DNA from: Amphiscolops sp. MND2022
Lineage: Eukaryota
DNA length: 64,000 bases
Direction: 5' to 3'
Assembly (NCBI GenBank): GCA_964187785.1
Contig: OZ076409.1
Span: 77,626,001 to 77,690,000, forward strand
The first letter of the stretch is position 1; each line of letters begins with the position of its first letter. Of the stretch, positions 10,066 to 51,657 are shown piece by piece. The notes under the pieces are model-generated. The model ran no database searches. It was not told the DNA's origin and worked only from the letters and a program-made list of their open reading frames with translations. A program made the position numbers and the translations under genes.

Positions 10066-10266
10066 CTGTAGTTGGCTGTTGTAATTTTGTGACGAACTTG
10101 GTATTGTGTAGTTTGTATTTATCACTTGTTACAATTTTGTTCCTGTTTTCCTCTTGGGTGGTGCCTGTTGGCATGTTGGTGCCGAAAAACAACATTAGAT
10201 GGGCCGTAGTATGGTTATAAATAAAAATTGTCAAGTCGGTTCGGTTTGGACTCCTGATACTATCTT

Positions 10267-15128: not shown

Positions 15129-16509
15129 GATTCATCTCCAAATTTAGCTGTCGATTGTTGGGCGGAATTTCGTTCTTGTTGGAAGTGTTGCTTAGGCCTC
15201 GGATCGATGGCCGAGTTGGCTCTATTCCAACAATCTTCCGTTTTATGAGGTTTGCCGCAAGTTTCGCATTTGACCGTGGTGCCTGTACTATTTTTGGTTT
15301 GCTCGTTGTTTCTCCGTGTCTGTTGCCCTTTATCTCGTCTCATTTTTCGACATTCTGCTTTGAAGTGGCCGAATTTATTGCAGTAACACAGTATCTTTTT
15401 TTGGTATTGTGAGTAGTAGTTTGAGCAATAATTTAAGCTGATTTGACTTCAGGTTTTGTTTGAGCAGGTTCTATTTTATTTAAAGGGACCAAGGTGACCT
15501 CGTCTGGTGCTCCAAGGCCATCGAGTCGCATCTCTCTTTCCAAGTGGAGCACGATGTCGTTGTACAGTTTGTCTTCGAGGTATGCCCTGTTAAATATCTT
15601 CTTAAGGTGATCGGGCATCTTGGCATATGTTGCCTTTTCGATGAATTGTTGGGCCTCTGATCTGAAGGCTTCCTTGGCGGTTTTTTGGAGGACGTCCAAA
15701 CATTTGTGTAATTTTTGTGTGGAGGGATCAAATCTAAGTGCGTCCCATTCGCATCTGTCTTTTGCCATTGATAAGTAGTCGCCAAAACGGCGTTTGAAAA
15801 TCGTCATGATTTCCCCTAACGAGTCTTTTTTCGAATGTTCTATGTTGCAAAACGCTTGTAGTGCATATCCACGGAGTAGGGAATGAAAGTATTTTGTTTT
15901 TTGGAGTTCCGTGAGGAGTGGGTACATGATGTTGTTGCGGAAAAGATCCTCAAAAAGTTCGAAGTTTTCGAATTTCCCGTCAAACGTTGGGAGTGATGCC
16001 GTTACGGCTTTTGGCATAGGTAGCAAGTGGTTGTCGTTCTTTTCCGCTCCAAAAAGTGTTCTGGCTACCACAGGACGCTCTTTAGACGCTGTTTGGCTTC
16101 GGGACCTTATTTTTGATCTTTTCGGGTAATTTGAGGAATCGGTTAAGACTCCTGTCACCATGTTACGACTTACGTTCGTATCGTTGTTTTAGGTAAAATT
16201 AATTCTAACTGATTTTGTAGGAGTGTAGAAACTTCACGTTAGTGTAAGAAGCCTTATCATTTCCCTTTGAGACTCTACTAGGCGATTCTTGATTTCGGAA
16301 GTATTCTCTTCTTTCAAAGACGCTCCTAAACTTTCCAAGAAACTGCCTTCAATTCTGGTGGATTTTGAATTAGACGGTCCCGCAACACTTACGTCCCGGT
16401 CTAAAGGACAAGAATTTTCCACTACAACTGGTGAAACAAAACCTTCACTTACACTTTCAATAGCTTCTTGTTGGTTGTTTCTTCTCTTTTGGCTTCTTTT
16501 AGTCGACAT
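15119..16509 (-). pseudogene. gag: gag of element A, starting inside the 5' LTR
   Basis: MSTKRSQKRR start at 16509, LPTFDGK capsid-like motif, Zn knuckle CETCGKPHKTEDC, ends ESKN* at 15119. Homologous to the 20072 ORF. Confidence 0.88.
16146..16160 (-). promoter_or_regulatory. Primer-binding site of element A
   Basis: TGGTGACAGGAGTCT directly abuts the LTR end ...TAACA. It resembles tRNA-Leu-type PBSs (TGGTGTCAGGAGT); the primer tRNA is not verified. Confidence 0.8.
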
Positions 16510-17526
16510 TTTGATGAAGAAAGATTTATTTCAGATGAATTCGATATATCTTCTGAGTATTTTTCAACAAAGTTGAATGAGGTTAAATGAGAAAAAATGA
16601 ACAAGTTTTTGAGCAACTAATTTTCGCAACTAGAAAAGACTGAGTCTCTTGATCAACAAAATGCATCGTAGTTATACCCTCCTAGCATCATTTGATCACA
16701 ACTATGTTCCTAATTTCTTTCAAACAATTAATCAATTCTCGTTTTTTCGGTGAAAAAATCATTATGCTCCCAAATTTGTGTCAACATTTCGTCAAATTTT
16801 AAGGCACGGCAATCTTAATCTAGAATTAGTCATCAACCATGATCATATCATTTCATTCCGGCGTCTTTTGCTTCCTCCCAAGGAGGAAGTAGATATTACT
16901 TCAGTCTGTCAAACCGGAAATGTTTCCCTGTTTTTGTGCTTTGGTTCGTAGGAAAATTGACGCAGAGATGACGCTGACGTGAACAACTAATACCTGATTT
17001 TGAATTTCAACTTGAGAAATTATGACCAATTATCATGATTTAGCCAGTTTGATGATGCTAAGAGAACTAAAGGGATCAGATTTTCGTTAACTCTATTTTT
17101 TTAAACAAATTAGCACGCATAGTCCCTTTTGTTAATGAGGTAAAATCATAGTCAAACGTATTGATAACGTCAAATTAGGTAAGCTTCAACAAAAACGTCA
17201 AACAGTAACAGCAATTCCAAACGATAATAGACTTTGTTAAAATCCAAAATGTATTTTCTGTTTTAGATCTGATTGATGTTCTTTTGGAGATGATTTTGGA
17301 TATGTTTTCATTTAGATTAGCTTATGATTTCTTTACTTTAAAACGTGTTTTAATTTTGTTTTCAGGTGACGAATGTTACTATTTTGACGTGACTGAAACG
17401 TCTTGCCGGAAATGCGTGAAAATTATTTTAGTTCATTTTACTTTCTGTTTTCATTCTCGTTTGAGAGTTGCGCAAAGCGGACGTATATTTTGCATTCCTA
17501 GTCACAGTTTATCTTAAATTCAAGTT
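16161..17526 (-). repeat. 5' LTR of element A (internal ~0.8 kb segment missing; cut by gap)
   Basis: Aligns to 2444-~3610, jumps to ~4418-4686, then runs into the N gap. Confidence 0.85.
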
Positions 17527-17726: not shown

Positions 17727-18098
17727 CATCACTCGTTGTTAAACCATTTCATTCCCGCGTGGCATCTTTTCCCACAGACAGGAATTAGATTTTACTTTGC
17801 GTCTGCAAAAAAAGTTTTGAGAACCCTTTCAATAATTCAGCAACTTGCAAACCACCAAAGTTTCCGGCAACTAACATTCATCATCAGTGACAACGCAATG
17901 CCGAAGAATAATTATAGAGAGATGTAAAGGTATTTACATGAGAGAGAGGTTTTTTCATGCATTTTTGCAGGAGAAACATATCAACATTGTTATCAAGTTC
18001 AACTAATGGGTTGAAAGTATCACAAAAGATATAAAAACGTCAAAAATGTTCATAAGGTATGAAAAAAAATCAGAAAAATCATTTTTCACAAAAATGGC

Positions 18099-20450
18099 TG
18101 TCACGACCCGCTCCCGGTCGTAATTTTACTTGCTGCTCTGGAATACCTGGATTCGGCAGAGAACATGGACAAAGGCAGAGTAAATACCTTTAAACTTTGT
18201 TAAACTAATCAAATTCTACTTACAGTACAGTTAAATAAGTGCGAATAACTTTCCAAATACGGAATTCAACGTATGCGTTACGGAAGATTTCCAGAAATGA
18301 CTTTAAACTAGCTAAAACTTCCGGTCTAATGTTTTCACACACAACACCGTTTTACTTCCGGTTTTATCTTCTGAGTTTTGCCACTCCAATCTAAATATTA
18401 AAACAATTTTGCAGACGGGATCGTTTTGGCGCTCCACACTTAAATAAAAACACAGAATCGACATTTAACTCCGAGATCTCAACGGAGTCCATAAGATCTA
18501 AAATGAAAGAACATACAAAAATAGAGTGGAAATGTATTCCAAAACAAGAGTAGTTGTTAAATATCCACTTAAAACCGTAGTCAAGTGATTTTAAGCAAAC
18601 GTTTACAATGTAATGACATCGTCACTCAACTAGGCAAGCAACGGGCGCTCCTATTTTCACGGGCCAATAGCGTCACTCGTTGGCAGAATTATCTGAGTTA
18701 ATACCAATAGATTTACGCTTGGTTGCCCTTAGCAACGCTTACTAGCTAAGAAAAGAGAATAGAATTGCTTACGCTCTCCGTTTTCACTCCGCCTGCTGCT
18801 GCTGCTCAGCTATAAGCAACCTTAATACATGCGGAACGCTTACGGAGCAAATTGTAAAATTGTATTCCGCCGCTCAGCTATACCTAATCTTGATACGTAC
18901 GGAACATCTACGGAGCGAATTATAAAATCGCAAATGAGAAATACTGGTCCAAACGAAATCAAAATGAAGCTTTTCTAAATCGATTCGCTTGAAAGATTTA
19001 AGAGTTAAGATTCTAATATAAGGAAAACTGTACTGTAAGGAAGGATGATAGAAATTACAATGGTATTTTTATGTTTTGGATTTGTATCATCATGGTAAAT
19101 CACTAAATCGCGTTGACATTATGCTTTGTTTAGTACTTCCTTAATGGAACAAATCTACTTGGTTTACTATGGCAATTAAAATATCTTTATAATAATCCTA
19201 ATGCAAGACGTAAAGTCAACGCTAATTCCTTATTTTCAAGCCAGTAGTAACGGCTGTATTTTGTGGTAACAACAATCAGGCTAATGACCAAACTATGATT
19301 ATGTTCTGACAAATTTTACGGTCATCATGTAAAATGTTGAAGTTGCTTTCCATTTGATATTACAAATATGTTGCGCTCATCTAGTTAGCAGTATAACCAT
19401 TGTTACATTCCGTTAAAGTCCCGTTTGGACTTAATTTGTGTTCAAAATGAATGATGTAGTATGTCATTAGCAGATAATTCATATGTTTGAATTTGGGATT
19501 ACCGTTTCAGCATCGTTTGTTCTTTCATACCAAATTTCCATATTTTTCTTCCGCTTCCAAGTTAACTCATTTCGTATTGATTACGTCGCCATTTTTGAGT
19601 GTCATTCTTTTACTTCGAACTTCAATTTCCTAACTTGAACGCTGACTAATTGATCACGCCGGCGTGCCTACGCTGATGAAAATGTCAGCTAGACTTCTAT
19701 TTTGCCGCAATTTTGAAGCTCAAACAGGAAATGAATCGCTTGAACAAAAATGATTTCAACCAAGTTTTACGGAACACTGACGCAACTAGGAATTTTGATA
19801 CCTGATTTTACGACGCGGAACTGAAATAATATGAATCATTAGCGCGTTTTGTTGAACGAACCCGATTTTTGTGATACCTAGGAATTTTTAGGTGAGGAAC
19901 AAATGATGCTGGGAAGGTATAAATATGTAAAACATACATGTAAATCAGTTAGTTTTTAACCGTCTTTGTAACAATTAGTTCTGTTCCGTTATCATAACGT
20001 GTTCAAAAGAAAACTTAAACCTTTGAAGAATTCAACTTTTCCAAAGATACTTTCTCTCTCTCTCGACCGAAATGACAACCAGAAGCCAGAAAAGGAAAGC
20101 TGTAGCCGAGTTAATCTCTGGTGATTTTGAAACCTCTGTAACCGAAAACTTTACGTCTGAAACCCTTGTAGCTAGTTCTAGCAAAAGTCCTAGGATAGAG
20201 CCAGAAGGTTTGGCTGAGATAAAAACGTCACTAAGAAAGGAGATTATGTCTGATCTGTCTAAAATACTTGCGGAAAACCAAAAGGAAATGCTTAAACTGA
20301 TAGCACCTTTAAACAAGAAACAAACAGTCCACATGAATGTTCAAGACTCAGACTCTGAACCAGAGAATGTTTCCGTACCAAGGACGTCTACCCCCGTCAA
20401 AACTCATATAGCGACTAACTCTAAAACAACTCCGGTTAAAAGTCCTAACA
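18099..20450 (+). repeat. 5' LTR of element B (2352 bp)
   Basis: Direct repeat of 33412-35788 with TG...CA ends, followed immediately by a TGG PBS. Confidence 0.95.
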
Positions 20451-21480
20451 TGGTGACAGGAGTCCTCAATGACTCTACCAACCAACCCACGAAAAGATCG
20501 AAACAACAACGCGCATCCAATGAGCAAACACAAGACCATCCTTCCACATCTAAAATACTGTTCGCGCCACAACCGCAAACATTTCCAGCTACCAACCTAC
20601 TTCCGATGCCGAAAGCACTCATTGCTTTGCTTCCAGTCTTCGATGGTAAGTCCGAAAAGTTTGAACTTTTTGAGGACCTATTCCGAAATAATATCAAAAT
20701 GTACCCTCACCTAACCGAGATACAAAAGATCAACTACTTCCATTTACTCCTACGCGGAAACGCGCCACAAGCGTATTGTAATCTAGATGACGCTAAAAAA
20801 GACAACCTAGAAGAAGTCATAACGGCATTCAAACGTCGCTTTGGCGATTTCCAATCATCTGCTAAAGCGAGATGCGAGTGGGATGCGCTGCATTTTGACC
20901 CCACTAAACAGAAACTCCATGAGTTCCTTGACGCCCTGCAAAAAACTGCAAAAGAAGCATTCGGCTCAGAAGTACAAAGATTCATTGATAAAGCAATCTA
21001 CGCCAAAATGCCGGACCACGTCAAGAAGATCCTCAACAGAGCATATTTGGAAGATAAGCACTACAATGACATAGCTTTGCATCTTGAGAGGGAAATGAGG
21101 TTAAACGGAATAGGTGCGCCCGACGAAACAACCCTAGTCCCACTCAACACAGTGGACGCCGTAGTGACGGACGATAAAAAAGACCAACAACAACGAGGTC
21201 ATTGCTTTCACTGTGGCAAATATGGCCACTATAAAGCACAGTGTCGCAGACTTCAACGAGAGCGTTACAATATCGCCAGAACAACCACAAAAGACCCAGC
21301 CCAAAACGAAGTACCCAAAACCAAGTGTGATACATGTGGCAAGATGCACAAAACTGAGAACTGCTGGATAGAGCCAATGCAGCAAATGACCCCAGAAGGA
21401 AGAAACGAGAATTCACCATTCAAACCAACAAAATCAGTGAACAACCCGTACCCACACTGTCCTCCCAGCCAAAAAACTGA
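20072..21480 (+). CDS. gag: gag of element B (starts in the LTR; probable 1-nt lesion near 21367; native stop TGA 21478-21480)
   Basis: LPVFDGK motif and two Zn knuckles, CFHCGKYGHYKAQC and CDTCGKMHKTENC. Comparison with A (CWNRANSAIDP...KN*) places the true end at PKN*. Confidence 0.85.
20451..20465 (+). promoter_or_regulatory. Primer-binding site of element B
   Basis: TGGTGACAGGAGTCC directly follows the LTR terminal CA. It is absent after the 3' LTR. Confidence 0.85.
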
Positions 21481-21547
21481 AATCGACGCGCCTACGATTT
21501 GGGGAAAAAGTAGACGCGAGGGCGTACACGATAGAGGACCCCCAAAC
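21471..21547 (+). promoter_or_regulatory. -1 ribosomal frameshift signal (A_AAA_AAC + stem-loop/pseudoknot)
   Basis: The heptamer directly precedes the gag stop in both A (15122-15128, minus) and B. The -1 frame peptide is conserved (RLRFGEKVDARAYTIEDP vs RLRFGKTVDAGAYSTEDP). Confidence 0.8.
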
Positions 21548-22896
21548 AGGTCTAAGAAAGATTTTTTAACCGAATGTAATGAAGAACCAACTCAAGACTG
21601 GCAACGCCGTTGGAACGTAGGCATGATTCTCAGACATAACGCCAGACACCCAGAAGAACCAACGCCACTACCCCAGTCGATAACGGAGTCGCCCGATAAC
21701 TATGCGACACTCAAAAGACCGTTGCCGGAATCAAAAACAGAACGAATTTATATATACGACAGAGACTGCAGGTGTGACCCCTGGGATGAACCAACTATCT
21801 ATGATACAAATAAACTAGCCTTCAAAATCCAAGTCTCAAACCATCAAGCTCAATCTACGGAGATCACAAACCTACCATCACCACTGTCACCGATCCTGAA
21901 AAGAACAACACCATCCCCAACAGTACCCGTCACCATCACGTCCACACCGATAGACGCAGAGAATATCATCTGCATTGAAGATAAAACAATATGGGCACAA
22001 CAGGAAAGAAGAAAACGAGAGAATGCCGACCCTCCAGCAACCCCTCCAAAAACCGCGCCCGTCACAGCACCGACGAACGACGACGTAGAAATCACGGAAT
22101 GTCCCTCAAAACTGCCTGAAGATCTGGATGCCATCAAAGAATTCATCCAACATGACAAAGACGACGACTACTTTCCGCTAATGTCTGCCATCGCTACCAA
22201 TCGAATTCAACATAGTCAAAATCGACGCCCTAGTCGACTCAGGTGCGTACATTAACGCTATTAGTGAAAGGGACGCCGAAAAACTCCGACAGCACGCTAA
22301 CCAGTGCATCGTCAATAAGGCACCCCCACCCCCTTTCAAAGTGCAGTATGCCAATGCGAATTAGAACAACCACTCGCCACGTACACCCTACGTTTCAAAA
22401 TAGGGGATTACACCTTTGAAGAAACATTCATCATCATGAATCAAACGTCATTCTCCATAATCGGACTAGCGTTCCTACGTAAACACGCCGCAATTCTCGA
22501 CACTGCACAAGTAACCATCGACTTCCCTAAGATCCAAATCACGATGGCACTCACAGATGAGAGACAAAAGTGCAATCCCAAGCCCATCACAATAAAGACC
22601 GAAGCCAAGCACACAATTCCAGCGCACTCTACCCGAATCATTTACGCAACAATCCCTGTGAGCACAGAACACTCAATAACTGGCACAATACAACCCTTAC
22701 CACAATTTGACGAATGCGCAAAAGTAATAGTAGCCCCAGCAATCACAACATCCAGAGATAAAAAGATACCAATTAAAATCGCCAATACCACGGATTTCCC
22801 ATACACAATAGCCACCGACACCAAAATGGCCGAACTACAAATCCTAAAACCCGAAGAAACGAAGATGATCCGCCCAGTTGACATAGCCGCCCTGAA

Positions 22897-23636
22897 CATT
22901 ACGATACATATCCCCGCAAGCAAGTTCCCAGATCTTGCGACTTGCAATAATAACCAATCACAGTGAGTTATTACGATGTTGACTGTTTTACACTTTTCTC
23001 TTATTACACCAAGTGATAATTAGTTACACTGAATGACTAAAATTCACTAATTGACTGGTTTACACTATTTTCCGGTCCATAAATTTACACTAATTGACTG
23101 AATTACGCACTGATGCAGTACTACGCACTTTGACTAAATTACGCGATTTTCCACTACGCATTTTGATTGAATTACGCCGTCTTACTAACGCCGGTACGTA
23201 TGCGTTAATTGTTTAATCGCGTAATTCAGTCAAAGTTAATGCGTAATTTAGTCAAAGTATTTAAACTCCAAGCAACTATCCAATGTAAATTTATGTGTTT
23301 GAAGCAATTATTAGATTGCCGTAAACTAGTCAAACTTTGACTACTTTACACTTTTCGGTAGTTTAGTAAATGAATACCTCATTAAAAGTGGAATTTAATC
23401 AAACTTTGACTGAATAACACCTTACTAAATTAGCTTGTAAATTTTGACTGTTTTACACTATTTACTAACTACGCATTTTGACTGGAATTCACCGCGTTCA
23501 TATTACACTGTGCTGCACCACTACACGAGTGGATTACTACAGTCTTTGACCAACTTACAGTAATTGACTATTTTACCCAAAATACTATTTACACCAAGTG
23601 ATCACTTTCCACTTTTGCGGGACATGTATCGTAATG
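22897..23636. mobile_element. Non-autonomous DNA transposon (CACTA/EnSpm-like MITE, 740 bp) inserted in pol of B
   Basis: TIRs CATTACGATACATATCCCCGCAA / TTGCGGGACATGTATCGTAATG, 2-bp AA duplication, and many internal TTGACT..TTAC(A/G)C repeats in both orientations. Removing it restores DIAALNLLTD. Confidence 0.85.
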
Positions 23637-26600
23637 AATCTTCTCACTGACCATGACGATGTGGTCACGTACATTAGTGCACTAATGCAAGTAGAGCGGC
23701 CCAAAGATAATGAAGAGAAATTCTGGTTCCCGACTCCAGAACACCCAGGCAACGAACAAGAACATTCGCCCATACAAAAGCGAATCTTGAAAGAACTACG
23801 ACACCTTGCCCAACTAGAAAAACTTGATCCAACCGAAAAGGAAGAGTCTCGCAACAAATTCCTATCCATGTTCAAATGGACAGATTCACTGATCGCGGGC
23901 AAAGACCGTGAAAACCTTGAGGACACCATTGTCGAATTCAACGACATCTTCGCTCGACACCGACTAGACATCGGGATGAACACACAATTCAAAGTTAGCC
24001 TAACACCACAAGACGGTAAACCAGTCTACACACAAAGCCTACCAGTCCCCATCAACCTCAAAGAAGATCTAACTGTGGAACTGGCCCTCATGCACCGATA
24101 CGGTATCATCACGACACTCCCCTTCTCCAAGTACGCCAGCCCCATATTTGCACAACGGAAACCCAACGGCAAGCTGAGACTACTGGTGGATCTGCGCAAA
24201 ATCAACGCACTCATAGCAGATGACTACATCAACAACAACCACCCTGTCAGCACCCTCTCAGACGCGGCACAACACCTAGCAGGGAAAAAACTATTTTGCA
24301 ATCTTGACTGCTCCCAGGCGTACCACTGCCTCCAAATGGCAAATCAAAGGTCAGTAGAATTACTTGCTTTCAATTTTGCTAGTAGGACGTTCGCCTACCG
24401 TCGCCTGGCACAAGGACTAAGCAGAGCTCTATCAGCCTTTTCGAGCTTTATGCGTGAGTATCTGGATTCAGTCATCAAAGCAGACCAATGTGCACAATAC
24501 GTAGATGACATTGGCATCGCCGCAAATACAACGGAATAGCTCATAAAGAACATCAGAGCAGTTTTCAAGTGCATTAGAGAGGCAGGACTAAAACTAACCT
24601 TTGAAAAATGTCACTTTGGAGTAACCCAAATTGAATTTCTTGGCCGAACCATCACCTGACGGAGTGGCCCCGCAAGACCAAAAAGTCAAAAGTTTCCTCT
24701 CCAAAGTTCGCTTCCCCAAATCCAAAAAACAAGTTCAAAAATACATTGGCTTTGTTAACTATTACCGCAATTACATACCGCGCTTGTCAGAAAAAGTCAT
24801 TGGCATGTACGAACTTCTCAAAGCAGACTCCAAAATCAGAATTTCAGAAGAACTTGTCGATAACATTAAAGAAATTAACGCCAATTTAGCGGAAGCTTGT
24901 GGAATCGCACTCAGACAGCCCAAAGCAGGGAAACAATACGTTCTAATGACGGATGCAAGCTTTCGTGCATCAGGCTACGCCCTCATGATCGAGGAGAACG
25001 ACGAACGCAAAATACTCTCCAAACGGAAAACTTTCGCACCAGTAGCGTTCGGATCACGAGTTTTCTCACCTGCACAACTGAAAATGTCCATCTACTGCAA
25101 GGAATTCTTAGCAATCTACCACGCCTTCCTCGAATACAGCCACATACTATGGGAAACAACAATTCCAACGCTGGTCTTAACAGACAACCGCTCAGTAACT
25201 AGATTCTTCCAGACGAAAACGACACCTCCTGCACTCTGGAATGCCTGTGACTACGTACTACAATTCAAGTTCCGAATTATGCACGTAGCAGGCTCCCAGA
25301 ACACGGCAGCAGATTTTCTCTCAAGACTTGAACAAACACCGAAAGAAAAGGTACAACTTAAACTACGAGACGACATCCTAACGTCCCCAATTGAGGTTAA
25401 TCTACAATCATCAGATGTAGCTGACGAGGAACAACTTTTCTTTCTACCAGACGAAGAAGATGAATATGAACAAGAAATTTTTGCCCGAAGAGCACTCAGC
25501 AAGCGACGTGCCCTAGACGAACATGAGAGAGAACTATCAACAAAAGTAACCGAAGTCATCAAGATACCACTCAACTCAGCAGTCTACTCCTTCGGTGCAA
25601 TTAAGGAAAATGCACGGATCAGAAACGAACAAGATGCAGACCCTCTCCTCAAAGCACTGAAACAACGGATCTCACACGAAGATTATGACAAACACCTCCT
25701 CAAAACTGAACCACGAGGACGAAACCTATTACGCCACGAAGAAAGAATCATAATGAAAGATGGAGTCCTGATGCGAAAGTACTACGGAGAAGACGGATCA
25801 GTCACCCATAACCAAATCATAATTCCAAAACACCTCGATCCAGAACTCTTGTCTACTCTACATGGGAAAACAAATAAACACCCAGGAATTACCAAAATGA
25901 TACAAGAATGCAGAGCGAAATACTACTTCCCGGGTCTTGCACGCAAAATCAGAGCTTGAGTAACCAGTTGTCAGGATTGCATTACCAATAAAAGAATCGA
26001 CACGACACAGATACGTCCCAAAATGCTAAGCAACACTGAATTCACAATGGGACGACAAGACTGTCTAGAAGTAGACATCCTTCCGAATCTACCTTCCTCA
26101 AATGGATACCAACACATCATAACGATGATGGATGTTTTTTCGCGTTACCTTTTCGCTTACCCGACACTGGATATGACAGCAAAAACAGTCGCACGATGCA
26201 TAATAGACGTCATGACACGACACTGCTACCTACCGACCGTCATTCTAACGGATAAAGGATCACAATTCAGGTCAGAAAAAGTCAACCAAATAGCACAAAC
26301 ACTGGATATACGGATAAGCCACGCGTCGACGAAACACGCTCAAACGATTGGCATCCTAGAAAGGACTCATGCCTCTTTGAAAACCTCCCTAAAGATATCA
26401 ACGGGAGAAAGACGCTCTCTGTGGCACAAATACGTCCAGATTGCAGTCATGAATTACAATACAAGCTACCATGAAGGCCTAGGTTGTGAACCTACAACAG
26501 TGTTTCACGGACGCATTCCGTACAATATTTTGGACATAAAACTTGGATTGAAACCTAACTGGGAAAAAGATAGCATCGAAGAACTAACGGCCCAACTACA

Positions 26601-27087
26601 GAAACAAATAGCCGAAATACAACAAGCTGCCAAAGAGAACCTAATGCAGTCTTACCTCAAATACAAACAGTATTATGACAAGAAAGCAACGGCTACACCG
26701 CTCAAAGTCAACGACTACTGCTACGTCCTTAATCCGAAGGCAGACAATCAGTCAATGAACTTCGCCTTTAAAGATTGCATTTGGACTGGACCCTACATAG
26801 TAGTCAAAGTACTCTCGAACAACAACTACGTCGTACGTCGCACAGGAACTAGGTATACTCAAACCCTCCATAGAATTCGCCTAAGGCTATATGCGCCCAA
26901 TCAGCGAGTACCTGACGTAACAGTCAGAAGGGAAGATTACCTTCCAGATCCAGAGGTTAAAACAACCCACAATGATTGGTACGCGCAAGCTTGGGAAACC
27001 GAATTCGGAGAAGTTCTGTTCGGAAACAATACGGAAAACGCCGCCGAAGAAGCTACAGTTATAGAAATCGCAGACACAACAGGAAAC

Positions 27088-27222
27088 GACGAAATTACAA
27101 CGGAAAATGATGTGGTTAAAACAATCACAAACGAAATTACAGCGGAAAATGACGTGGTTAAAACAACCACAAGCGAAGATATAACGGAAAATGACGTGGC
27201 TCAAACAGCCACAAATGAAAAT
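27088..27222 (+). repeat. ~42-bp coding tandem repeat (x3) in the integrase C-terminal tail
   Basis: EITTENDVVKTITN / EITAENDVVKTTTS / EDITENDVAQTATN. Confidence 0.75.
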
Positions 27223-27624
27223 ACTGCAGAAGATAAAACACCCTCCGACAATATAACGTCATTTAACTTGGACGTCAGCGACAACCCCTATATTTTTACA
27301 CCGCCGCCTATAGAAAGCCCTCCCAAAACACCCGAACTAACGCCAATAGTCATTGGATATAATCCTAGAAAAGTGGGCCGATACAATTTGAGACCTAATC
27401 CGAGACCCAAAGTGGATCCTGACTTCAGAATGCTAGACTCAGCTACTACGGAAAATCTGAGTCAAACTCAAAACTAAATGAAAACGATCAACAGGCTAAA
27501 CCGAACCGGAGTAGCTACGTAAAAGTATCATCTAAACTAAAAGGAGCATCAACAAAGCCAAAATTATCGCTCCTTCAGAATCATCAAAACATAACAAAAG
27601 TCTACAAAATTGTCACAACACAAG

Positions 27625-30600
27625 TTATTTGGCGTGATGATATACGAGAGGATCAGTATCTTTCTTCGACTTCTTCTTCGGAGTCGTCTTACTACCACCA
27701 GCTTGCACATTAGATTTTTTCGATTTCCCGACTTGCTTCACATCAGTGCTCTTCTCACCAACTTTACTTCCACCACTTTTCCCTTTTCCACTAGTAGAAC
27801 TGGAACTACTCTGCACAACGGAACTGCTACGAGACCCCTGCTCTGCACGAGACAAACGATTGACCCGATTACACTCAGTATAATGCTCATCTTTGGATTG
27901 TCGTCGCTTTGCTAAAAATTCCTTATACAGCTCGCAAAAAGCCGCAATAAATGAGTTCACGCCAGAATCACACAGATCTTTCCACACATTAAAATCAGAG
28001 CCAATATAGAAGAGCCCAGCATCAGAAACAGCATCTCGAATTAGGCCCATCGTCGACTCAGTAAACAATGACTGCGGAGAATAACCGTCACTCAAAACAT
28101 AGGATTGGACAACCCTGCAGCACAAAAGCACACTCCCTTCAACCTGCTTACAGCCAGCCAGATCAAGAGTAAATGGAGGACTAACACGATTGGGCTCACC
28201 AACGAGCAGGCAACATAACTTGAAGACACGCATTACATGTCGTCGTGATTGAAACCCAAAATCATCCAGCAAATAACGACGAACGTCCGAAATAGAACTG
28301 GCAGAACGCTCCAATTGACTATGATGCCTGCGTTTCTCAATCACGTATGCGCTGTATTCATCCACAGCGGCATTGCATTCTTCTCGGGATAAAGCGCCGC
28401 ACCTCATCAGATCATCACACAGCTCAGAGAACAAATCAAACGCACACTTATCGTCACCTTCTAACATCAGTTCAGGGCAAAAACTGCACAGACCTTTCGA
28501 CACAACGGAACGGGTGCCAGCGCTCTCTACTAACAAGAAGGCGAGACGATCGACAAATTCTCTACAGCGACCACGAAACTTTGGCATTTCACTCGACTTT
28601 GAGGATAGAAGAGACTTCCCATACTCACAGTGGGCCAAGAATTCCTCCACAGGTGCAACAGGGAAACTTGCCGCCTTTTCCACGTTCATGTACGCATCCC
28701 AAACGTGAATATCTGGGAGACTTGACAACTGGCGTGGCTTCATCAACAAGCAGTATATGAAATTGCACAATTCGCCAAAGCCATGGAACGCATAATCGCT
28801 GCGGCTCTGTCTCAATTTCGGCAAATGAATATGGAAAGTATCCAGCATCAATTGCAACAGTCCAAAACGATACGGCATCAGTCCGTCCGAGATCACAGTT
28901 GAATCCATCCCTCTCAACTAAACAACAACACACAATAATCAAGCAGACGGGAAATAATAGATGATTAACAAAACGACCCTGAAGAACCCTTCACAAAAAA
29001 AAATCATGCAACAAACTTACACTATTGGCTTGATCCTTCACATGAGGCAACCCAGTACACCGAATGAACAGACGAATTGAAGGCCACAGATCCACCAAAT
29101 CAGTCAGAACCTCACGAAGATCCTGGAAGGCAACGAAACCTTGACGAATGGCCTCACGCAGCAACACCTTGCCGTCTGTCCAGTCCTTATAGACAGCGCT
29201 CTTCAGTCTTAAAATGACATAGTTCATCAAACATCTTGATGTGCCTGACGCACACACTGCAGGAACACCTCTCCGGAAAACTGTTGATGCATAACAAACC
29301 GCTTCCCATCAGAACGATTGTCCTCTATCCCTCTATCACTAGAAGCAGCACCGGACTAGCGCCGCTAATACAAAAGGGAAGACGCGCATTTTGCACACCG
29401 TGGACGAACTGCGCCAAAGGAACCAACTCAGATTTGGGCATAGGCTGATCCAAAACTTCCTGACCAATACAGATTTTCCGTAGAGCAGTGTCCAACCAGC
29501 ACACAACAAAGCACCGTTCCACATCCGCGTCCTTCTCATAAAACAATGCGTATTCATTGCGTGTCCCGACCGCATTGAGAACCAGACGCAACACCCGAGG
29601 AGCAAGACCACGACACAGCAAGGACTGAAACAATACGCAACTACCATGACTACAAAATCGTACTATTACAGATCCCCCCCCAAAAAAAACAAAATGAGAC
29701 AAAGAGAGAAAACAAAGAGCTCATAAACCCAAAGGCCACACAAAATATGTAATATTCCTACTTACCACCGTCTCAGTACGACTCCAACTCAGCTGATATT
29801 CAGGCGCTCTCTCACCCAAAGAAGCACGAAAACACGCCCATAAACGTCGTAACAATGTGAAGTCGCCGCCACTCCGGAGCCACTCACAGACAGATGAGAT
29901 TATCGTCATAAATGGGACCTTCGAATCAACTTGAGCATGCTTGGGTACCAAATCTTCCGGAAAAGGGAACCCCTCTGCTAAGTCCACAAAAAGTTGAGCT
30001 TTATACTCCGCAATCTGGTCGGCAGTTAGTTCCATAGGCTCTAACCACCTATTGTATACGGGCAACCCCGAATGCACCCTGTAGCGCACATCACGAAACC
30101 AGTGTCCATCAGATGAGAAGTGACGTTTAAACTCGCCAGATCCTTGAGCTTTCATCCGCACATCTCGGTGGCACACTCGACAGAAGAAAAACGTAGGCTC
30201 CCCGCACTTAGGGCCACTGACGAAGTCGGAATATGCAGGATGCAGGGACAACATGCGTCTTTTTAAATGCTTGCGATTTCCATAAGTCCTAACTCAACGC
30301 TGACAACGATCTCCAATCTTCTCAGACAATTTCGTAAAACCTGCAAACAATAACAAAACCATCTATTAACACGATACATAATACTAAAACTCCAAGGCCC
30401 CAACCAAACCTAAAGAACCCCCCATTCACTATGAGATACCAACGTACATGTCTCGATACTTTGTACTGCCCGAGTCTCTACCTCCGAAATCAGATGACGA
30501 CCAAACTGCGCCAAATCAATGGGACTCAACGGAGTATTGCCGGGGAAAGCTAACACCTCCCCCTCCTCCGCTTCTTTGTCACCTATAACAAGCACCAAAT

Positions 30601-31455
30601 AATTCGACGGAAACAAAACGGACGCCCGAGCTAACCAGAGAAAACACAAGCAGAAGACTAAGTCGTACAACTCCATACAAGCATCCTTCACAACAAAGAG
30701 AAGAGAAAGGAAAAGGATGAACGAAAAAAAAAGAAAAAAAAGAAACAACTAACTGCTCCATCCTTCAGCCATGAGATCCTGTAAGGTAGGTGAATGACCA
30801 CCTTGACGTCGCTGTGGAGGAGTCGAAAATTTAACAGCCTGCTCACGGGAACAATCCGGCTCCATGACATCCACAGCCGCAGCCTGGGCACCATTTTTTT
30901 CCCTCACGTTTTCTTTCGGGGAGGCCGGACCGGCCTCGCCTCCACGAGGCTCATTGGCAACGGTAGCATCTTGAAGATGAGAATCAACTCCTGTGGCATC
31001 TTGTGAAACACCAGCACTGACGTCGGGAGCCTCTAACAAAGAAGAGGAACCAGGCGGGAAAGAAGCAGCATGCCCGGAACCAGCAAGAACAGTTGTCAAG
31101 ATAGCACTAACAGAAGCAACCGGAAATGTCTCGGTAATGGAAGGAAGGCCCGCGGGAACGAAGGAACGACTAGCATCCGTATTGGTACTAAGCCCGGGCA
31201 GCGCAATGGGTTGAGTTACTGAAAATCAGATCTGGTTCAGACGCGTCAGAGTTACGGGTAAGACTATAAGAGGCTGATCACCAAAACAATAGTCCTATTA
31301 CACAGGAAGTCAGAAAGAATTTACCAACCCGAAGCAGAACGAGAAATATCTACATCAGAAGGGACGACGTCATCATCAGTAAAATTGAAGGTTGTCTCGT
31401 TCCCGCTGACGAACCCTGTGCCAATACCAGCAGGCGGAGCAGAACTATCATCCAT
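27625..31455 (-). CDS. Antisense, intron-containing zinc-finger protein gene carried by element B (some lesions)
   Basis: ATG at 31455 (MDDSSAPPAG...). ZnF exon FFCRVCHRDVRMKAQGSGEFKRHFSSDGH. GT-AG introns at 29765-29625 and 29020-28918, acceptor TTGCAG at 30341. Open 430-aa last exon at 28917-27625. Confidence 0.8.
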
Positions 31456-32256: not shown

Positions 32257-32866
32257 AACAAGACGGGAACGTCTAAAGTCGGCGCTACATCTAAGGCTCA
32301 AAAAGCTCAGTTTTCTAAATATGCCCAGGATGTATTCATGAAAAGCTTTGAAAACACTTTCGAGACACCCAAAGTGTGCCTTTCATGCTCGATATGACTG
32401 GAAAATCACTTTTCTCGACTGGAAACAAAAAAATTTTTGAAAATTTTTTTTGAAAAAAAATTTTTGAAAAAACTTCGAAAACGTCGCATAGTGCCGAAAA
32501 ATGAAAAGGGGGGACCCTTTGGGATTCATTAACATACTTTCTGTTGCAAAATATCAAAAAATCCGAAGGGGGGACTCTTTTGAAAAATTAAAAATTTTCG
32601 AAAAAAAAATTCGCACAGTGCCGAAAAAAATTGAAAGGGGGGACCCTTTGGAGTCTTCCGGTTTTGTAGGTTACGTAAAAAAGGTAAAAAACGAAAGGGG
32701 GGACCCTTTGCAGTAAGTTTGCATTGGTGGAACTTGGCCTGAGTGAACTTATCAGTTTCTGTAAAAAGTGGTACATACGCGATGAGCTCTGTGGTCTGAC
32801 GAAAAAAAAAACTAGCCACTGTAATAGTCGGGCTTTTTTCCTTAAAGGAAAATGCGCGGACTAAAA
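32257..32866 (+). mobile_element. Non-autonomous Helentron/DINE-1-like element
   Basis: 5' subterminal AGTCGGCGC (32277). 3' hairpin AGTCGGGCTTTTTTCC..GGAAAATGCGCGGACT whose arm is inverted to the 5' motif. Internal GAAAGGGGGGACCCTTTG repeats. Inserted in an A-run with no clear TSD. Confidence 0.6.
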
Positions 32867-33400: not shown

Positions 33401-33411
33401 AAGAGGGGCCC
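33401..33411 (+). promoter_or_regulatory. Polypurine tract of element B
   Basis: AAGAGGGGCCC immediately precedes the 3' LTR TGTCAC. Confidence 0.7.
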
Positions 33412-35788
33412 TGTCACGACCCGCTCACGGTCGTAATTTTACTTGCTGCTCTGGAATACCGGGATTCGGCAGAGGACATGGACAAAGGCAGAGTAAATAC
33501 CTTTAAACTTTGTTAAACTAATCAAATTCTACTTACAGTACAGTTAAATAAGTGCGAATAATTTTTCAAATACGGAATTCAACGTATGCGTTACGGAAGA
33601 TTTTCAGAAATGACTTTAAACTAGCTAAAACTTCCGCTCTAATGTTTTCACACACAACACCGTTTTACTTCCGGTTTTATCTTCTGAGTTTTTCCATTCC
33701 AATCTAAATATTAAAACATTTTTGCAGACGGGATCGTTTTGGCGCTCCACACTTAAACAAAAACACAGAATCGACATTTAACTCCGAGATCCCAACAGAG
33801 TCCATAAGTTCTAAAATGAAAGAACATACAAAAATAGAGTGGAAATGTATTCCAAAATTAGAGTAGTTGTTAAATATCCACTTAAAACCGTAGTCAAGTG
33901 ATTTTAAGCAAATGTTTACAACGTAATGACAGCGTCACTCAACTAGGCAAGCAACGGGCGCTCCTATTTTCACGGGTCAATAGCGTCACTCGTTGGCAGA
34001 ATTATCTGAGTTAATACCAATAGATTTACGCTTGGTTGCCCTTGGCAACGCTTACTAGCTAAGAAAAGAGAAGAGAATCGCCTACGCTCTCCGTTTTCAC
34101 TCCGCCTGCTGCTGCTGCTGCTCAGCTATAAGCAACCTTAATACATACGGAACGCTTACGGAGCAAATTGTAAAATTGTATTCCGCCGCTCAGCTATACC
34201 TAATCTTGATACGTACGGAACATCTACGGAGCGAATTACAAAATCGCAAATGAGAAATACTGGTCCAAACGAAATCCAAATGAAGCTTTTCTAAATCGAT
34301 GCGCTTGAAAGATTTAAGAGTTAAGATTCTAATATAAGGAAAACTGTACTGTAAGGAAGGTTGATAGAAATTACAATGTAATTTTTATGTTTTGGATTTG
34401 TATCATCATGGTAAATCACTAAATCGCGTTGACATTATGCTTTATTTAGTACTTCCTTAATGGAACAAATCTACTTGGTTTACTATGGCAACTAAAATAT
34501 CTTAATAATAATCCTAATGCAAGACGTAAAGTCAACGCTAATTCCTTATTTTCAAGCCAGTAGTAACGGCTGTATTTTGTGATAACAACAATCAGGCTAA
34601 TGACCAAACTATGATTCTGTGTTCTGACTATCCAAACTATGTTCTGACAAACTTTACGGTCATCATGCAAAATGTTGAAGTTGCTTTCCATTTGATATTA
34701 CAAATATGTTTCGCTCATCTAATTAGCAGTATAACCATTGTTACATTCCGTTAAAGTCCCGTTTGGACTTAATTTGTGTTCAATATGAATGATGTAGTAT
34801 GTCATTAGCAGATAATTCATATGTTTGAATTTGGGCTTACCGTTTCAGCATCGTTTGTTCTTTTATACCAAATTTCCATATTTTTCTTCCGCTTCCAAGT
34901 TAACTCATTTCGTATTGATTCCGTCGCCATTTATGAGTGTCATTCTTTTACTTCGAACTTCAGTTTCCTAACTTGAACGCTGACTAATTGATCACGCCGG
35001 CGTGCCTACGCTGATGAAAATGTCAGCTAGACTTCTATTTTGCCGCAATTTTGAAGCTCAAACAGGAAATGAATCGCCTGAACAAAAATGATTTCAACGA
35101 AGTTTTACGGAACACTGACTCAACTAGGAATTTGGATACCTGATTTTACGACGCGGGACTGAAATAATATGAATCATTAGCGCTTTTTGTTGAACGAACC
35201 CGATTTTTGTGATACCTAGGAATTTTTAGGTGAGGAACAAATAATGCTGGGAAGGTATAAATATGTAAAACATACATGTAAATCAGTTAGTTTTTAACCT
35301 GCTTTGTAACAATTAGTTCTGTTCCGTTATCATAACGTGTTCAAAAGAAAACTTAAATCTTTGAAGAATTCAACTTTTCCAAAGATACTTTCTCTCTCTC
35401 TCGACCGAAATGACAACCAGAAGCCAGAAAAGGAAAGCTGTAGCCGAGTTAATCTCTGGTGATTTTGAAACCTCTGTAACCGAAAACTTTCCGCCTGGAA
35501 CCCTTGTAGCTAGTTCTAGCAAAATTCCTAGGATAGAGCCAGAAGGTTTGGCTGAGATAAAAACGTCACTAAGAAAGGAGATTATGTCTGATCTGACTAA
35601 AATACTTGCGGAAAACCAAAAGGAAATGCTTAAACTGATAGCACCTTTAAACAAGAAACAAACAGTCCACATGAATGTTCAAGACTCAGACTCTGAACCA
35701 GAGAATGTTTCCGTAGCAAGGACGTCTACCCCCGTCAAAACTCATATTGCGCCTAACTCTAAAACAACTCCGGTTAATAGTCGTAACA
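33412..35788 (+). repeat. 3' LTR of element B (2377 bp), includes a copy of the gag N-terminus (35410-35788)
   Basis: Direct repeat of 18099-20450 with scattered substitutions and small indels, followed by TSD ATGGC. Confidence 0.95.
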
Positions 35789-38291: not shown

Positions 38292-38755
38292 TGTGATGCC
38301 ATGATGCATGTCCTCAAGAACTTTCAAATATGTATGTAAACTTGAAGTCATCCACCTTTGGAAAGATATAAGTCACTTCATTTTGTAGTTAATTGAAGTT
38401 GACTAGATTGCTGACACTTGAAGATAACTTAACTAATACTTTGTGACAAAATAATTAGTAACCCATTTATTTCACCTTACTGTTGTCGCTCTTGATTAAT
38501 TAGCATGTCAATATAACTAATTGCAATCATTGATGAGTTTGTAGAATATATCTACTCAGAGAAAATTAGAATATTAACTGAAGAACGGTTTCACTTTGAA
38601 AGAAGACCTTAACTGAGATCTCAGAGATATTGCAAGATAGCTAGCTAGTCAGTCAACTTGGTACCCTAGACGAATTTCCTGTTAAGAATTGCAGACTTCT
38701 TATGTGCTCAATAAAACAAACAAGAACTACTACAACATACATTTTCAACTGCTCA
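38292..38755 (+). repeat. 5' LTR of element D (464 bp)
   Basis: TGTGATGCCATGATGCATG...CTGCTCA. Its termini match the solo LTR at 47162-47562. AATAAA at ~38710; followed by AT + TGGTGCTGCGG. Confidence 0.8.
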
Positions 38756-38757
38756 AT

Positions 38758-38773
38758 TGGTGCTGCGGTCACG
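38758..38773 (+). promoter_or_regulatory. Putative PBS of element D (duplicated at ~41558)
   Basis: TGGTGCTGCGGTCACG lies 2 nt after the LTR end. The tRNA is not identified. Confidence 0.6.
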
Positions 38774-38953
38774 AAAATTCTCTTTTCTCTCCCTCTAGTA
38801 CCCCAACTTCATTCTTCTTGTACATCTTTTCTCGACTTTCTCATCAGATACCTCATTGTTCGACAAAGTGTCTCACCTCCTCTCTGTATAGTACATAGCT
38901 ACCAACTCAACGTTGCAACCAATTTCTCCTGAAATTGATTCATGTTGTTATGG

Positions 38954-39090
38954 TTCTGACTGCGTCACAAAACGTAATTCCTGTCAGTTAAATTTCTTCG
39001 GATCTGACTGCGTACACAACGTTATTCCTGTAAGTTAAATTTTTCTGATTCTGACTGCGTCCTAAACGTAATTCTTGTCAGTTGAAAAGT
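38954..39090 (+). repeat. Three ~48-bp tandem repeats in the 5' leader of D (copy at ~41754-41890)
   Basis: TCTGACTGCGT..AACGT(A/T)ATTC(C/T)TGT(C/A)AGTT occurs three times. Confidence 0.8.
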
Positions 39091-42000
39091 TTTTCGTTCC
39101 AACCACCATTGATTGAATTCATCTTGGTATTTCCTTCTCTTTTTTCAGTTCCAACCGCAGACGTGCGATACGTGTTGGCCTTTCTACAGTGCTATCCAGC
39201 AATTTCTGCTGGTAAAAATACTTTGATTCTAGTTGCTTGGATCAACTTCAACGTTGGCACACCTACAATACATAAAACTACAACACTTCTTTTCATAAAC
39301 CTCTTTCGAACATTTTCAGTAAATTCTCACGACAATATTTTTCCAAAACAAAGCTTAACGGATCCAAATATTTTACATGAACATTTAAATTAATACACTA
39401 ATCCTAAATAACCTCTTATATATTTCACTATCGTACATCATATATTACAACTTCTAAAATAGAACTTCCCATCCCAATGACAAATGCCTTCAGCTGATGA
39501 TATACTTAGGTTCATCATTTTTTTTGTTTCGCTTCTGCATTCCTTGCTGGTATTGCTCTTTTCTTTGACAAATTTTTACTACCTTTTAGAACCAAGTTCT
39601 AAGACACAACTCCCATCTTTATGCTTCCAAGTAAAGTACTACCTCTTTTCGGACTACTTAGTATATATCATACGTTTTATACACTTATTCCTTACATCCC
39701 GAATAAATTCCTTCTTTTTCTTTCTACAGTACTTACAATATTTTTCCAAATTGTCTTTGTCGACCAAATCATACCATATAACTATAACATTACTTCCCAA
39801 AATCTTATTATACACTACATATATCTATTACGGAAAACCTATTATTCCAAATAATCATTCAGAAACACAATGCTCCCTCCTCCATTTTTACTATCTACAG
39901 AACAACGTCAAAAACGTTCTTTAACTCAAGATGTAATACCATTTTTAAACAACATTATATTTCAATACACAAATCCACTCTCATTTGAAACAGAACCTCA
40001 AAACATACATACCAATCCTTTGGTAAGAGAACATTGTGATTCTTATCTATATTACTTCCAATACAAGACACTAGAACCTTTACGTTCACAAAATCCATTC
40101 CAAATTATTTTTAACCCAGTTCCAGGCATAAATACAGAAACATATTATAAAACAATTCACCCACAAAATATAACTTTATCTATACATGATGTTTTTATTA
40201 CTTACATGAACAAACTTATAAAACATAATGGAAATCCAGACTCAACGGTATATCATCCTTCACATCTAGAAAGTCTCAAACAGAAACATGAATATTTCGA
40301 AGTACAAGATCTTGGAACCAAGATATCACGACATAATAATCCTCCTTTTTGCTTACAACAAGATATACTACAAATTAAACAATTTCAAAACAGATTTTTT
40401 CAAAACATTATACTTAATGAAGATACAGTACCACTAATCAAAGTCTTTTCACATTTTATGTTAAAATTTTCCCGATTTCTATACCAATTAATATGGGAAC
40501 AACAAGATCAAACTGCTTACATTAACTTCCATCAAGTACTAACAGAAACTGAATTACTACCATTCTTAATTAGAAATACAAAAAACATGTACAATACAGA
40601 GAGCCTACCTCATTTAACATCACTTCTTTTGAATTATTCAATTTCGATAATAATTTCATTATAGAACATTCTGAAACATCAGATAATCGCGCATATACTA
40701 CTTCCAATCTCATTTATGAACCTTTGCTTGACGAATATAATCCTAATATATTACAACATGATACTGGACTGAATATTTTATATCCCAAACAAAATCACAC
40801 AACTTTACAACTTAATAATATACCAGACCCTTGTGACACAGCTACAATACAAAATGTATCAGAATTATCTGAGGAAACTACAAATAATCCACAAAGTATT
40901 ACAATAACTGATGATTCAAATATAGTACAAATTCCTGTTCATAACATAACACAAAATCTAATCCATGATCAAACTCGAATTGATACTACTCAAAATACAA
41001 ACCGAGACAATACTTCATCATTAAATACTCAAACACTCAGATAACTCAAGAATTTCAAACACAACAACCCTTACCACAAAATTATGACCCACCTCCACCT
41101 CATTGACAATACTCTCTTCAAAAACTACTCCACATAATTCTCCTCAACAAGGATCTTCTAATACCCAAATCACAAATAGAGTACAAATTCAAACAACAAC
41201 TCCAACAACACAAGATACACAAGATAACTTAACTAATACTTTGTGACCAAATAATTAGTAACCCATTTATTTCACCTTACTGTTGTCGCTCTTGATTAAT
41301 TAGCATGTCAATATAACTAATTGCAATCATTGATGAGTTTGTAGAATATATCTACTCAGAGAAAATTAGAATATTAACTGAAGAACGGTTTCACTTTGAA
41401 AGAAGACCTTAACTGAGATCTCAGAGATATTGCAAGATAGCTAGCTAGTCAGTCAACTTGGTACCCTAGACGAATTTCCTGTTAAGAATTGCAGACTTCT
41501 TATGTGCTCAATAAAACAAACAAGAACTACTACAACATACATTTTCAACTGCTCAATTGGTGCTGCGGTCACGAAAATTCTCTTTTCTCTCCCTCTAGTA
41601 CCCCAACTTCATTCTTCTTGTACATCTTTTCTCGACTTTCTCATCAGATACCTCATTGTTCGACAAAGTGTCTCACCTCCTCTCTGTATAGTACATAGCT
41701 ACCAACTCAACGTTGCAACCAATTTCTCCTGAAATTGATTCATGTTGTTATGGTTCTGACTGCGTCACAAAACGTAATTCCTGTCAGTTAAATTTCTTCG
41801 GATCTGACTGCGTACACAACGTTATTCCTGTAAGTTAAATTTTTCTGATTCTGACTGCGTCCTAAACGTAATTCTTGTCAGTTGAAAAGTTTTTCGTTCC
41901 AACCACCATTGATTGAATTCATCTTGGTATTTCCTTCTCTTTTTTCAGTTCCAACCGCAGACGTGCGATACGTGTTGGCCTTTCTACAGTGCTATCCAGC

Positions 42001-42283
42001 AATTTCTGCTGGTAAAAATACTTTGATTCTAGTTGCTTGGATCAACTTTAACGTTGGCACACCTACAATACATAAAACTACAACACTTCTTTTCATAAAC
42101 CTCTTTCGAACATTTTCAGTAAATTCTCACGACAATATTTTTCCAAAACAAAGCTTAACGGATCCAAATATTTTACATGAACATTTAAATTAATACACTA
42201 ATCCTAAATAACCTCTTATATATTTCACTATCGTACATCATATATTACAACTTCTAAAATAGAACTTCCCATCCCAATGACAA

Positions 42284-48143: not shown

Positions 48144-49158
48144 CAGTAGACCAAAAGTGAAGAAGTTTCGAAAAGTCAAGGTTCGAGTGAGAGTTCATTT
48201 TCAACGAAAGTGAAGAGTAGAGCAGAGGCAAAAGTTGAAAAAAATTTTTGGCAATTTCAAGTTTCAAACATTAGAAAACGAGAAGTGACATTTTTTAAGA
48301 GTTCTAAAGAAAAATTTTGAAATTTTTTGGGAATGCTTTTGGGGATTAAAACAAAGGTGTAGAACATGTTTTGTAAAAGAAAAATTTTTGTCCAAAAATC
48401 TTAGAAAATTTCTTGTGCTGTAGGTAGGACTTGTGTTCTGTAAAAGATGGGTATTAGAGATATATTTTTGAAATGTATTATAGATGTAACAACATAATTA
48501 GATAAGATTAAGTCAATGTACTATACACAAGACAATAGGAGGAGCAGATAATATTGTGGTTACAAAGATAATTATCGGTAGAATTTTGAAGGGATTTTGC
48601 AATATAGGGGTAATTATAATACGATTACAGAAGATTAAGATTAGATAAGAGTATATAGCACTGAAGATTAGATAAGGGTATATAGCACTATACTGTATTA
48701 AAGTTATAATTTGATTAAAATAAGTTACAATAAGTTACAAGTTATATTTGTTAAAATTGATTATATAACTCAGTTTGAAAATTGACTCAAGTTTTGATTA
48801 CAATGTTTGAAATTTGGAGTATAGTCCATTGGAGTATGAAGGCCAGTCAAGAAGTCAGCATTAGAGGTGTGAAGACCAGTCAAGAAGTCAACATTTGAGG
48901 ATGAAGACCAGTCAAGAAGTCATCGTGGAGTGTGACGAGGACAAAGTTTGGCAACGTCGATGAACCCAAAGTGTAAATGGATGTTGTTAACCATCGTGTG
49001 TGGGTGGAGTGAAGAGTGTCAGCATGTGTAGGAGAAGTTTTTTGGAGGAGTGATCAGCAACCACATTTCAATGCATCATCGAAAGAAGATGAAAGATTTG
49101 GAGACGAAATGCAGTTGAAGAGTGAAATAGAAGTAAGTAGAAGATTTTGTTATAGAGA

Positions 49159-51419: not shown

Positions 51420-51657
51420 TTTAAAGTGAAAGTACTATAAACTACACTAACGAGTGGATTTATCAACTTTACTTGAAGAGTTTTTGAAGACGGTTATTAT
51501 TAGAGAAGTATTATTGGGCTGAGGAAGATGAACTTCTGCAAGAGTTTCGAGCGGTGGAGGAGTAGCAATTGTGAAGAGATAGTAGGCAAGTGTGCTGAAA
51601 GAGAGTTACAGAAAAACTGAGAGAGTGTTTAAGAAGATGGAGGAGGAAAAGGATAGT

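Follow-up and report, generated by a model that had tools for sequence, protein, structure and literature searches.

A spliced antisense accessory gene, likely of hAT origin, in a Ty3/gypsy retrotransposon family of Amphiscolops

A Ty3/gypsy retrotransposon family in the genome of Amphiscolops sp. MND2022 carries a spliced accessory gene, here termed the cargo, on the strand opposite to its pol genes. On balance, and with moderate confidence for the reading as a whole, the cargo is regarded as likely hAT-derived, retaining a zinc finger and a transposase scaffold without the cutting residues, and as likely encoding a DNA-binding regulator or protector of its own element. If true, one transposon class has been domesticated by another. 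A Class I element would have disarmed a Class II transposase and kept it under selection, the introns of the gene being preserved by its orientation.

The cargo gene and its element

The window, the whole stretch of 64,000 nucleotides that was analysed, lay in a eukaryote genome of 1.07 Gb and was made up of nested LTR retrotransposons. Element B showed the gene order of Ty3/gypsy, with LTRs, a target duplication and gag followed by protease, reverse transcriptase (RT), RNase H (RH) and integrase. The 5-bp duplication ATGGC flanked it at both ends and a primer-binding-site-like TGGTGACAGGAG followed the 5′ LTR. Between pol and the 3′ LTR, the cargo gene occupied 31455-27625 on the minus strand, comprising six exons and about 1,070 codons. 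The features were as follows.

18098-20450, plus strand: 5′ LTR of element B, TG...CA, LTR-LTR identity 96.2%
20027-27477, plus strand: element B gag (DUF1759, zinc knuckle), protease, weak dUTPase-like piece, RT, RNase H and integrase
31329-31455, minus strand: cargo exon 1, beginning with the ATG at 31455 and encoding a short acidic leader; matched in 25 of 60 loci
30754-31218, minus strand: cargo exon 2, low-complexity and fast-evolving; matches in 14 of 60 loci
30448-30582, minus strand: cargo exon 3, a short segment that is conserved; matched in 22 of 60 loci
29766-30340, minus strand: cargo exon 4, C-x2-C-x16-H-x5-H zinc finger and helical region, where hAT has its BED finger and dimerisation domain
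29021-29624, minus strand: cargo exon 5, RNase H-like core by prediction (b1-b2-b3-a-b4-a-[b5]-a), with the beginning of the helical insertion domain
27625-28917, minus strand: cargo exon 6, predicted helical insertion domain (all helix), C-terminal hAT-like helices and tail; open frame of 430 aa
32061-33470, plus strand: remains of a sense-strand ORF reaching into the 3′ LTR; about 250-310 aa in other copies
33411-35788, plus strand: 3′ LTR of element B, with a purine tract just before it
7108-9739, plus strand: cargo homologue of element A, exons 4-7, more decayed and antisense to element A's own pol

The five introns of the window copy were GT..AG introns of 103-171 nt, and their phases agreed up to exon 5. 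Exon 6 is two ancestral exons fused through precise intron loss. Its C-terminal tail of 85 aa was Ser/Lys-rich and basic, with 19 K/R. An earlier note, made from the letters of the window, had described an antisense cargo at 27625-30340 and quoted several motifs from it, all of which were present on the minus strand. The zinc finger motif CRVCHRDVRMKAQGSGEFKRHFSSDGH (C-x2-C-x16-H-x5-H) was located at about 30180-30100, YALFYEKD..CFVVCW at about 29550-29495, CISGAS at about 29372-29355 and DEYSAYV..RHVMRVFKLCCLL at about 28360-28205. The counterparts quoted from element A, YSVCFEDH..CIVRTW and ILGVS, were found as well. The motifs of that span are thus real, but it covers exons 4-6 only; three further exons lie 5′ of these, and the start of the gene is at 31455. 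The window copy was broken by an in-frame stop in exon 4 (30294-30296) and by two frameshifting indels in exon 5, near 29335 and 29230. Since pol was likewise interrupted by stops and frame changes, element B is an old, dead insertion.

The sense-strand ORF and the cargo gene were divergently oriented, and the 600-bp spacer between them may be a two-way promoter. In other loci (L032:9164-9976, L047:9034-9870 and L049:8902-9837), the sense ORF spanned the purine tract into the start of the 3′ LTR. It was conserved and of low complexity, with 34-96% identity between subfamilies, and had no significant match in Pfam. In the window copy it was split by an insert of about 550 bp (about 32280-32840) with A-runs and four GGGGGACCC-like repeats. 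Within pol, weak dUTPase-like matches (E 0.019-0.1) followed the protease piece at 22319-22966 (plus strand), and a 42-nt repeat was present three times in the integrase tail at 27090-27234 (plus strand).

Element A (about 4500-17500) was a diverged relative of element B in the opposite orientation. A different gypsy family was present at about 48000-64000, with an env-like gene in pieces at 52742-54340 (minus strand) whose weak matches to Monjiviricetes fusion glycoproteins (E 0.001 and 0.009) were below the cut-off. A related inverted copy of this element was located at 39600-48100. The window also held a 2.8-kb tandem duplication at 38421-44020 with 99.6% identity, and 1-1624 and 1667-3255 were duplicated with 97% identity.

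Conservation, exchange and intron loss

The family itself is not dead, and matches to the last cargo exon were frequent in the genome. At least 124 were obtained and 113 of these had no stop within the match, as counted among the best-scoring candidates (123 of 7,090 candidates were scored). Sixty loci were taken from the match lists to span identity classes; they were best-scoring or hand-picked and not random. The cargo was antisense and tail-to-tail with the integrase in 59 of these 60 cargo-picked loci, the remaining locus having no integrase in its stretch. When loci were picked by integrase, the cargo was antisense in 30 of the 30 best matches, the window included. Within the 60 loci, exon 4 was stop-free in 46, exon 5 in 44 and the last exon in 55, compared with integrase in 37 and RT-RH in 33. 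The donor after exon 4 was GT in 54 of 55 loci and the following acceptor AG in 52 of 53, and the donor after exon 5 was GT in 55 of 56. These splice sites were kept across subfamilies that were about 40% identical in protein.

Summed dN/dS for the cargo was 0.095-0.228 over three exons and three dS bins, compared with 0.037-0.19 for integrase and 0.03-0.067 for RT-RH; the pairs were not independent and those that were saturated or had dS above 1.5 were left out (963 of 1,035, 853 of 946 and 1,359 of 1,485). The genome-wide matches without stops, the kept GT/AG sites and dN/dS of 0.10-0.23 argue that the cargo motifs did not arise by chance. At the level of sequence, the cargo is a spliced gene under purifying selection throughout the family. 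Part of the cargo gene was tandemly duplicated within the gene at L031:6093-8383.

At E 0.001, a search of 1.84 billion representatives gave 448 relatives of the cargo protein. The longest of the 150 relatives listed had 443 aa, and those with sources shown came from ENA, with one from Logan. Two divergent relatives had no close match when searched in the Amphiscolops genome, and the cargo family is therefore probably present in other genomes too. Metagenome contigs with P0089 gave no cargo relative with genomic context outside this genome. Longer or fused relatives were absent from 7,608 candidates of 754-2150 aa, which is a weak test. P0083, P0089, P0100, P0127 and P0141 were very divergent relatives of the last exon, with 25-35% identity, and several of them lost similarity at a common point, as if an extra intron were present. 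P0272 and P0318 were rejected as spliced products, as both read through an intron.

Trees of the cargo and of RT-RH were built from the 32 of 60 loci in which both regions were intact. Two main clades were common to both trees, with conflict within the clades. AU tests rejected three forced clades with p values of 1.5e-5, 1.1e-4 and 5e-17, the groups having been named after the trees were viewed. Pairwise comparisons pointed the same way. L042 and L113 were 98-99% identical in pol and 47-60% in the cargo, where dS was saturated, and L042 and L033 were 92% identical in pol and 64-79% in the cargo. Overall, cargo identity was 38-60% against 70-90% for pol, the cargo diverging far faster. In L042 and L047, the sense ORF (82%) tracked pol and not the cargo, so both flanks can stay while the cargo is replaced. 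These comparisons indicate that the cargo is swapped between near-identical pol backbones. Elements with near-identical pol and a cargo only about 50% alike offer natural comparisons for expression, silencing and target choice.

A sixth cargo intron had its donor in 38 of 53 loci and a mutated donor in two. It was absent with an exact in-frame junction in the clade of the window (10 loci and the window itself). Separately, it was absent with an exact junction in L105, L118 and L119, whose relative L116 still had the frame interrupted at this place. By this distribution, intron 6 was lost precisely, twice, in separate clades. A spliced antisense cargo mRNA would have been made, reverse-transcribed and recombined back twice, and the two precise losses would form a clean record of cDNA-mediated intron loss within a mobile element.

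Relationship to hAT transposases

The earlier note had recognised a hAT-like layout by eye and had named profile and structure searches for an RNase H-like fold or hAT similarity as the means to judge it. On the side of sequence and profiles, the searches were negative. Neither Pfam nor a PDB sequence search with the cargo gave a hAT match. None of 135 last-exon rows and none of 86 exon-5 rows matched Dimer_Tnp_hAT (PF05699) or other hAT profiles at E 0.1. Comparison with 13 host Ac-type hATs in hhalign gave a probability below 1%, and local profiles (hhalign and HMMER) gave no match to 133 ORFs from hAT loci. Atlas features on the cargo gave nothing at 0.9. The cargo did not match a Tip-type hAT, one host family being compared, and PF14291 and PF25431 had no match anywhere, controls included. 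A search for Tip-type hATs in viral contigs gave no relative with context. Several cargo motifs look nearer to ZNF862/Tip-type hATs. Host hAT frames of about 500-700 aa with D, D and E motifs were present in L083-L088 and L091, together with a Tip-type family, and none was like the cargo in sequence. Sampling of the host hATs yielded no catalytically intact donor.

Structure prediction was positive, at modest strength. The N-terminal half was modelled on the natural frame of L033, with exons 4 and 5 and the intron between them read through, using 63 rows. The model was middling, with pLDDT 61.9 and pTM 0.32, and strand 5 was not called. Its layout was finger, helices, three strands, helix, strand, helix and long helix. 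In Foldseek, Hermes chains held ranks 1-4 and 7 of the top 10, with a best E of 8.8e-4 and prob 0.89. In VIA, residues 26-447 of the model were aligned to Hermes 21-347 over 243 residues, at rank 7 of 48,161 with Z 5.5 and rmsd 16.4. The core fell among RNase H-like folds (Hsp70, actin-like, Argonaute, integrases) with Z 4.7-6.4, and Hermes alone was aligned over the whole length. The last-exon model, based on 135 rows, was all helix with pLDDT 83.7. VIA aligned its residues 1-279 to Hermes 281-609 over 209 residues, at rank 2 of 48,161 with Z 6.1 and rmsd 8.3, the aligned length being about twice that of any other row among the matches listed. Foldseek of this model found nothing at E 0.001 in PDB or BFVD; a 693-aa viral transposase was at rank 3 in BFVD with a non-significant E of 0.79. 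The Hermes scores, Z 5.5-6.1, fall below the caution level of Z 8 set by VIA itself, and the rmsd values are high.

The predicted order was alike in the cargo and in Hermes (PDB 8edg, 4d1q, 2bw3), namely zinc finger, helical domain, RNase H-like core, helical insertion and C-terminal helices. An RNase H-like core with a large hAT-type helical insertion is thereby predicted at modest strength. Both separately folded halves matched Hermes in colinear order, though each score is weak alone, and for this reason the cargo protein very probably has a hAT fold and a hAT origin. The hAT-like layout of the earlier note was upheld by the structure models of both halves but not by the sequence and profile searches, and the hAT idea survived through structure. 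In the alternative, the RNase H-like core and the helical domains would have come from elsewhere and would resemble Hermes through a common fold. The uniformly negative sequence and profile tests and Z values below 8 suit this explanation, and on the core alone Hsp70, actin-like, Argonaute and integrase chains match as well as Hermes, the Hsp70/actin-type folds equalling or exceeding it in VIA. It is nevertheless very unlikely. Hermes alone spans the finger, the core and the start of the insertion in order, the separately folded last exon again picks Hermes and continues from residue 281, and the spacing of 14 residues in F...W equals that of W319-W333 in Hermes.

The residues of the putative hAT scaffold were mapped to Hermes by strand positions, offsets and alignment ends, as VIA gives range ends only; the register is inferred accordingly. 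D180, D248 and E572 are required for Hermes activity (PMC2533014). In the column of D180 (model residue 276), E was present in 20 of 32 rows and D in 0 of 32, and the adjacent column held D or E in 23 of 32. In the column of D248 (model residue 333 or 332), D was present in 0 of 35 rows in either register and E in 9 of 35, followed by G in 34 of 35. CxxH after strand 5 was absent from the cargo alignment. The place of W319 was taken by F in 35 of 35 rows, with W 14 residues on in 34 of 34. The last helices had neither ERxFS nor a column with a conserved E. Elsewhere in exon 5, five acids were conserved at 91-100%. The loss of the catalytic Asp positions and of ERxFS, which had been claimed before, is borne out on this inferred mapping, and given a hAT fold, loss of catalysis is highly probable. 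The zinc ligands C, C, H and H were kept in 24, 24, 22 and 24 of 24 rows. The finger matched Pfam only weakly, to U1/matrin-type fingers and not to zf-BED, and its CCHH form with x16/x5 spacing differs from the CCHC finger of Hermes (PMC10368747).

Terminal inverted repeats beyond chance were not found around the cargo gene in 5 of 5 loci. hAT-type ends, with terminal inverted repeats and an 8-bp duplication, were thus not seen; the element has LTRs and a 5-bp duplication. Unlike Hermes, the cargo has no conserved D180, D248, E572, CxxH or ERxFS and no terminal inverted repeats, and it moves only within the LTR element. From the models, its product would work like a domesticated hAT protein and fall outside the active hAT transposases. 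Retained nuclease or transposase activity from a rebuilt active site is highly improbable, and so is a passively nested hAT. The E in the D180 column in 20 of 32 rows and the invariant acids elsewhere in exon 5 could form a rebuilt site, but D was missing from both D248 registers in 35 rows. As for a nested hAT, the inverted repeats are missing in all five loci, the position in the element is constant, and a passive insert would not hold dN/dS of about 0.1-0.2 and splice sites at 40% identity.

Known systems and proposed function

Antisense accessory ORFs at the position of the cargo are already known. The aORF-3R genes of plant Ty3/gypsy elements (Retand TRP28/Transposase_28 PF04195, maize Grande gene23 and rice RIRE2) share with the cargo both the place between pol and the 3′ LTR and the antisense orientation (PMC7264820; PMC11963269). 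They are described as conserved and present in nearly all copies, a nuclear or DNA-binding role has been proposed, and Grande gene23 has its own promoter (PMC7264820; PMC11963269). The cargo likewise was antisense in 59 of 60 and 30 of 30 loci, at dN/dS 0.10-0.23. In contrast to aORF-3R, it has 5-6 spliceosomal introns, about 1,070 codons and the predicted layout of a whole hAT transposase, and PF04195 had no Pfam match in it. The plant aORFs are presented in PMC7264820 as without similarity to other transposable elements and mostly of unknown origin, and a regulatory role has been proposed for them there. ORFs captured by LTR retrotransposons have been reviewed (PMC6431247). In reviews, the origin and role of antisense accessory genes of LTR retrotransposons are open; for the cargo, a candidate origin can be named, a Class II transposase. 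A hAT-derived, intron-bearing gene in an LTR retrotransposon was not found in the open-access literature searched, and within that literature an intron-bearing case of putative hAT origin would be new. Host-domesticated hAT genes of the ZBED family reuse a transposase as a DNA-binding regulator. There, the domesticator is the host, whereas for the cargo it would be another transposon class.

In the proposed scenario, an ancestral hAT gene was inserted backwards behind pol of an ancestral element. The antisense orientation would leave the genomic RNA undisturbed by the introns and poly(A) signal of the cargo, which would be copied intact; the introns would survive because the genomic RNA is the opposite strand and is unspliced at them. 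The inserted hAT would then have lost its ends and its catalysis and retained the finger and the scaffold. Transcription would start in the spacer between the cargo start and the sense ORF, and recombination with reverse-transcribed spliced mRNA would account for the intron losses. The basic tail may import the protein into the nucleus, and the swapping of cargo variants may reflect conflict with the host or other elements.

DNA binding by the cargo protein, also suggested in the earlier note, is plausible. A regulatory role is favoured by analogy with VANC of the VANDAL transposons, an accessory gene with a sequence-specific anti-silencing role (PMC13547354), and with the plant antisense ORFs (PMC7264820). 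VANC is taken as the functional model, although it derives from a MAIN-like cellular protein and belongs to DNA transposons (PMC13547354). By this analogy, the cargo protein could be nuclear, bind sites in the element and raise its expression or shield it from silencing, for which the chances are put slightly short of even. More tentatively, a whole hAT transposase may have been domesticated as a DNA-binding module, sequence-specific and swappable, through which the element controls or de-silences its own copies, with variants exchanged like specificity cassettes.

Two other functions were weighed against a regulator of the own element. As a decoy, the protein would titrate a host silencing factor or poison competing hAT transposases and not bind its own element. 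The cargo diverges much faster than pol and swaps as a cassette, and the genome contains hATs with long open frames, all of which a decoy would fit. It is quite unlikely, as the cargo had no sequence similarity to the sampled host hATs and its dN/dS is well below 1. A protein of the same hAT origin could instead tether the integrase complex to preferred target sites, one of the roles suggested in the earlier note. Binding of target DNA by a zinc finger and a transposase scaffold is conceivable, as the BED finger of Hermes binds DNA specifically (PMC10368747), and one of 17 insertions lay in a tRNA-Pro array. However, the flanks of these 17 insertions, a small sample from one subfamily, had no common junction sequence and revealed no target preference. 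Matches among the flanks, and between them and hAT loci, lay at short and long distances from the junction alike, the pattern expected of common repeats. Tethering thus gained no support from the flanks. The cargo is moreover exchanged independently of the integrase, which is awkward for a dedicated integrase partner, and tethering is considered unlikely. At L173:426-1470, four tRNA-Pro(CGG) genes formed an array with a spacing of 321-326 bp, and an LTR had inserted 30 bp away from it.
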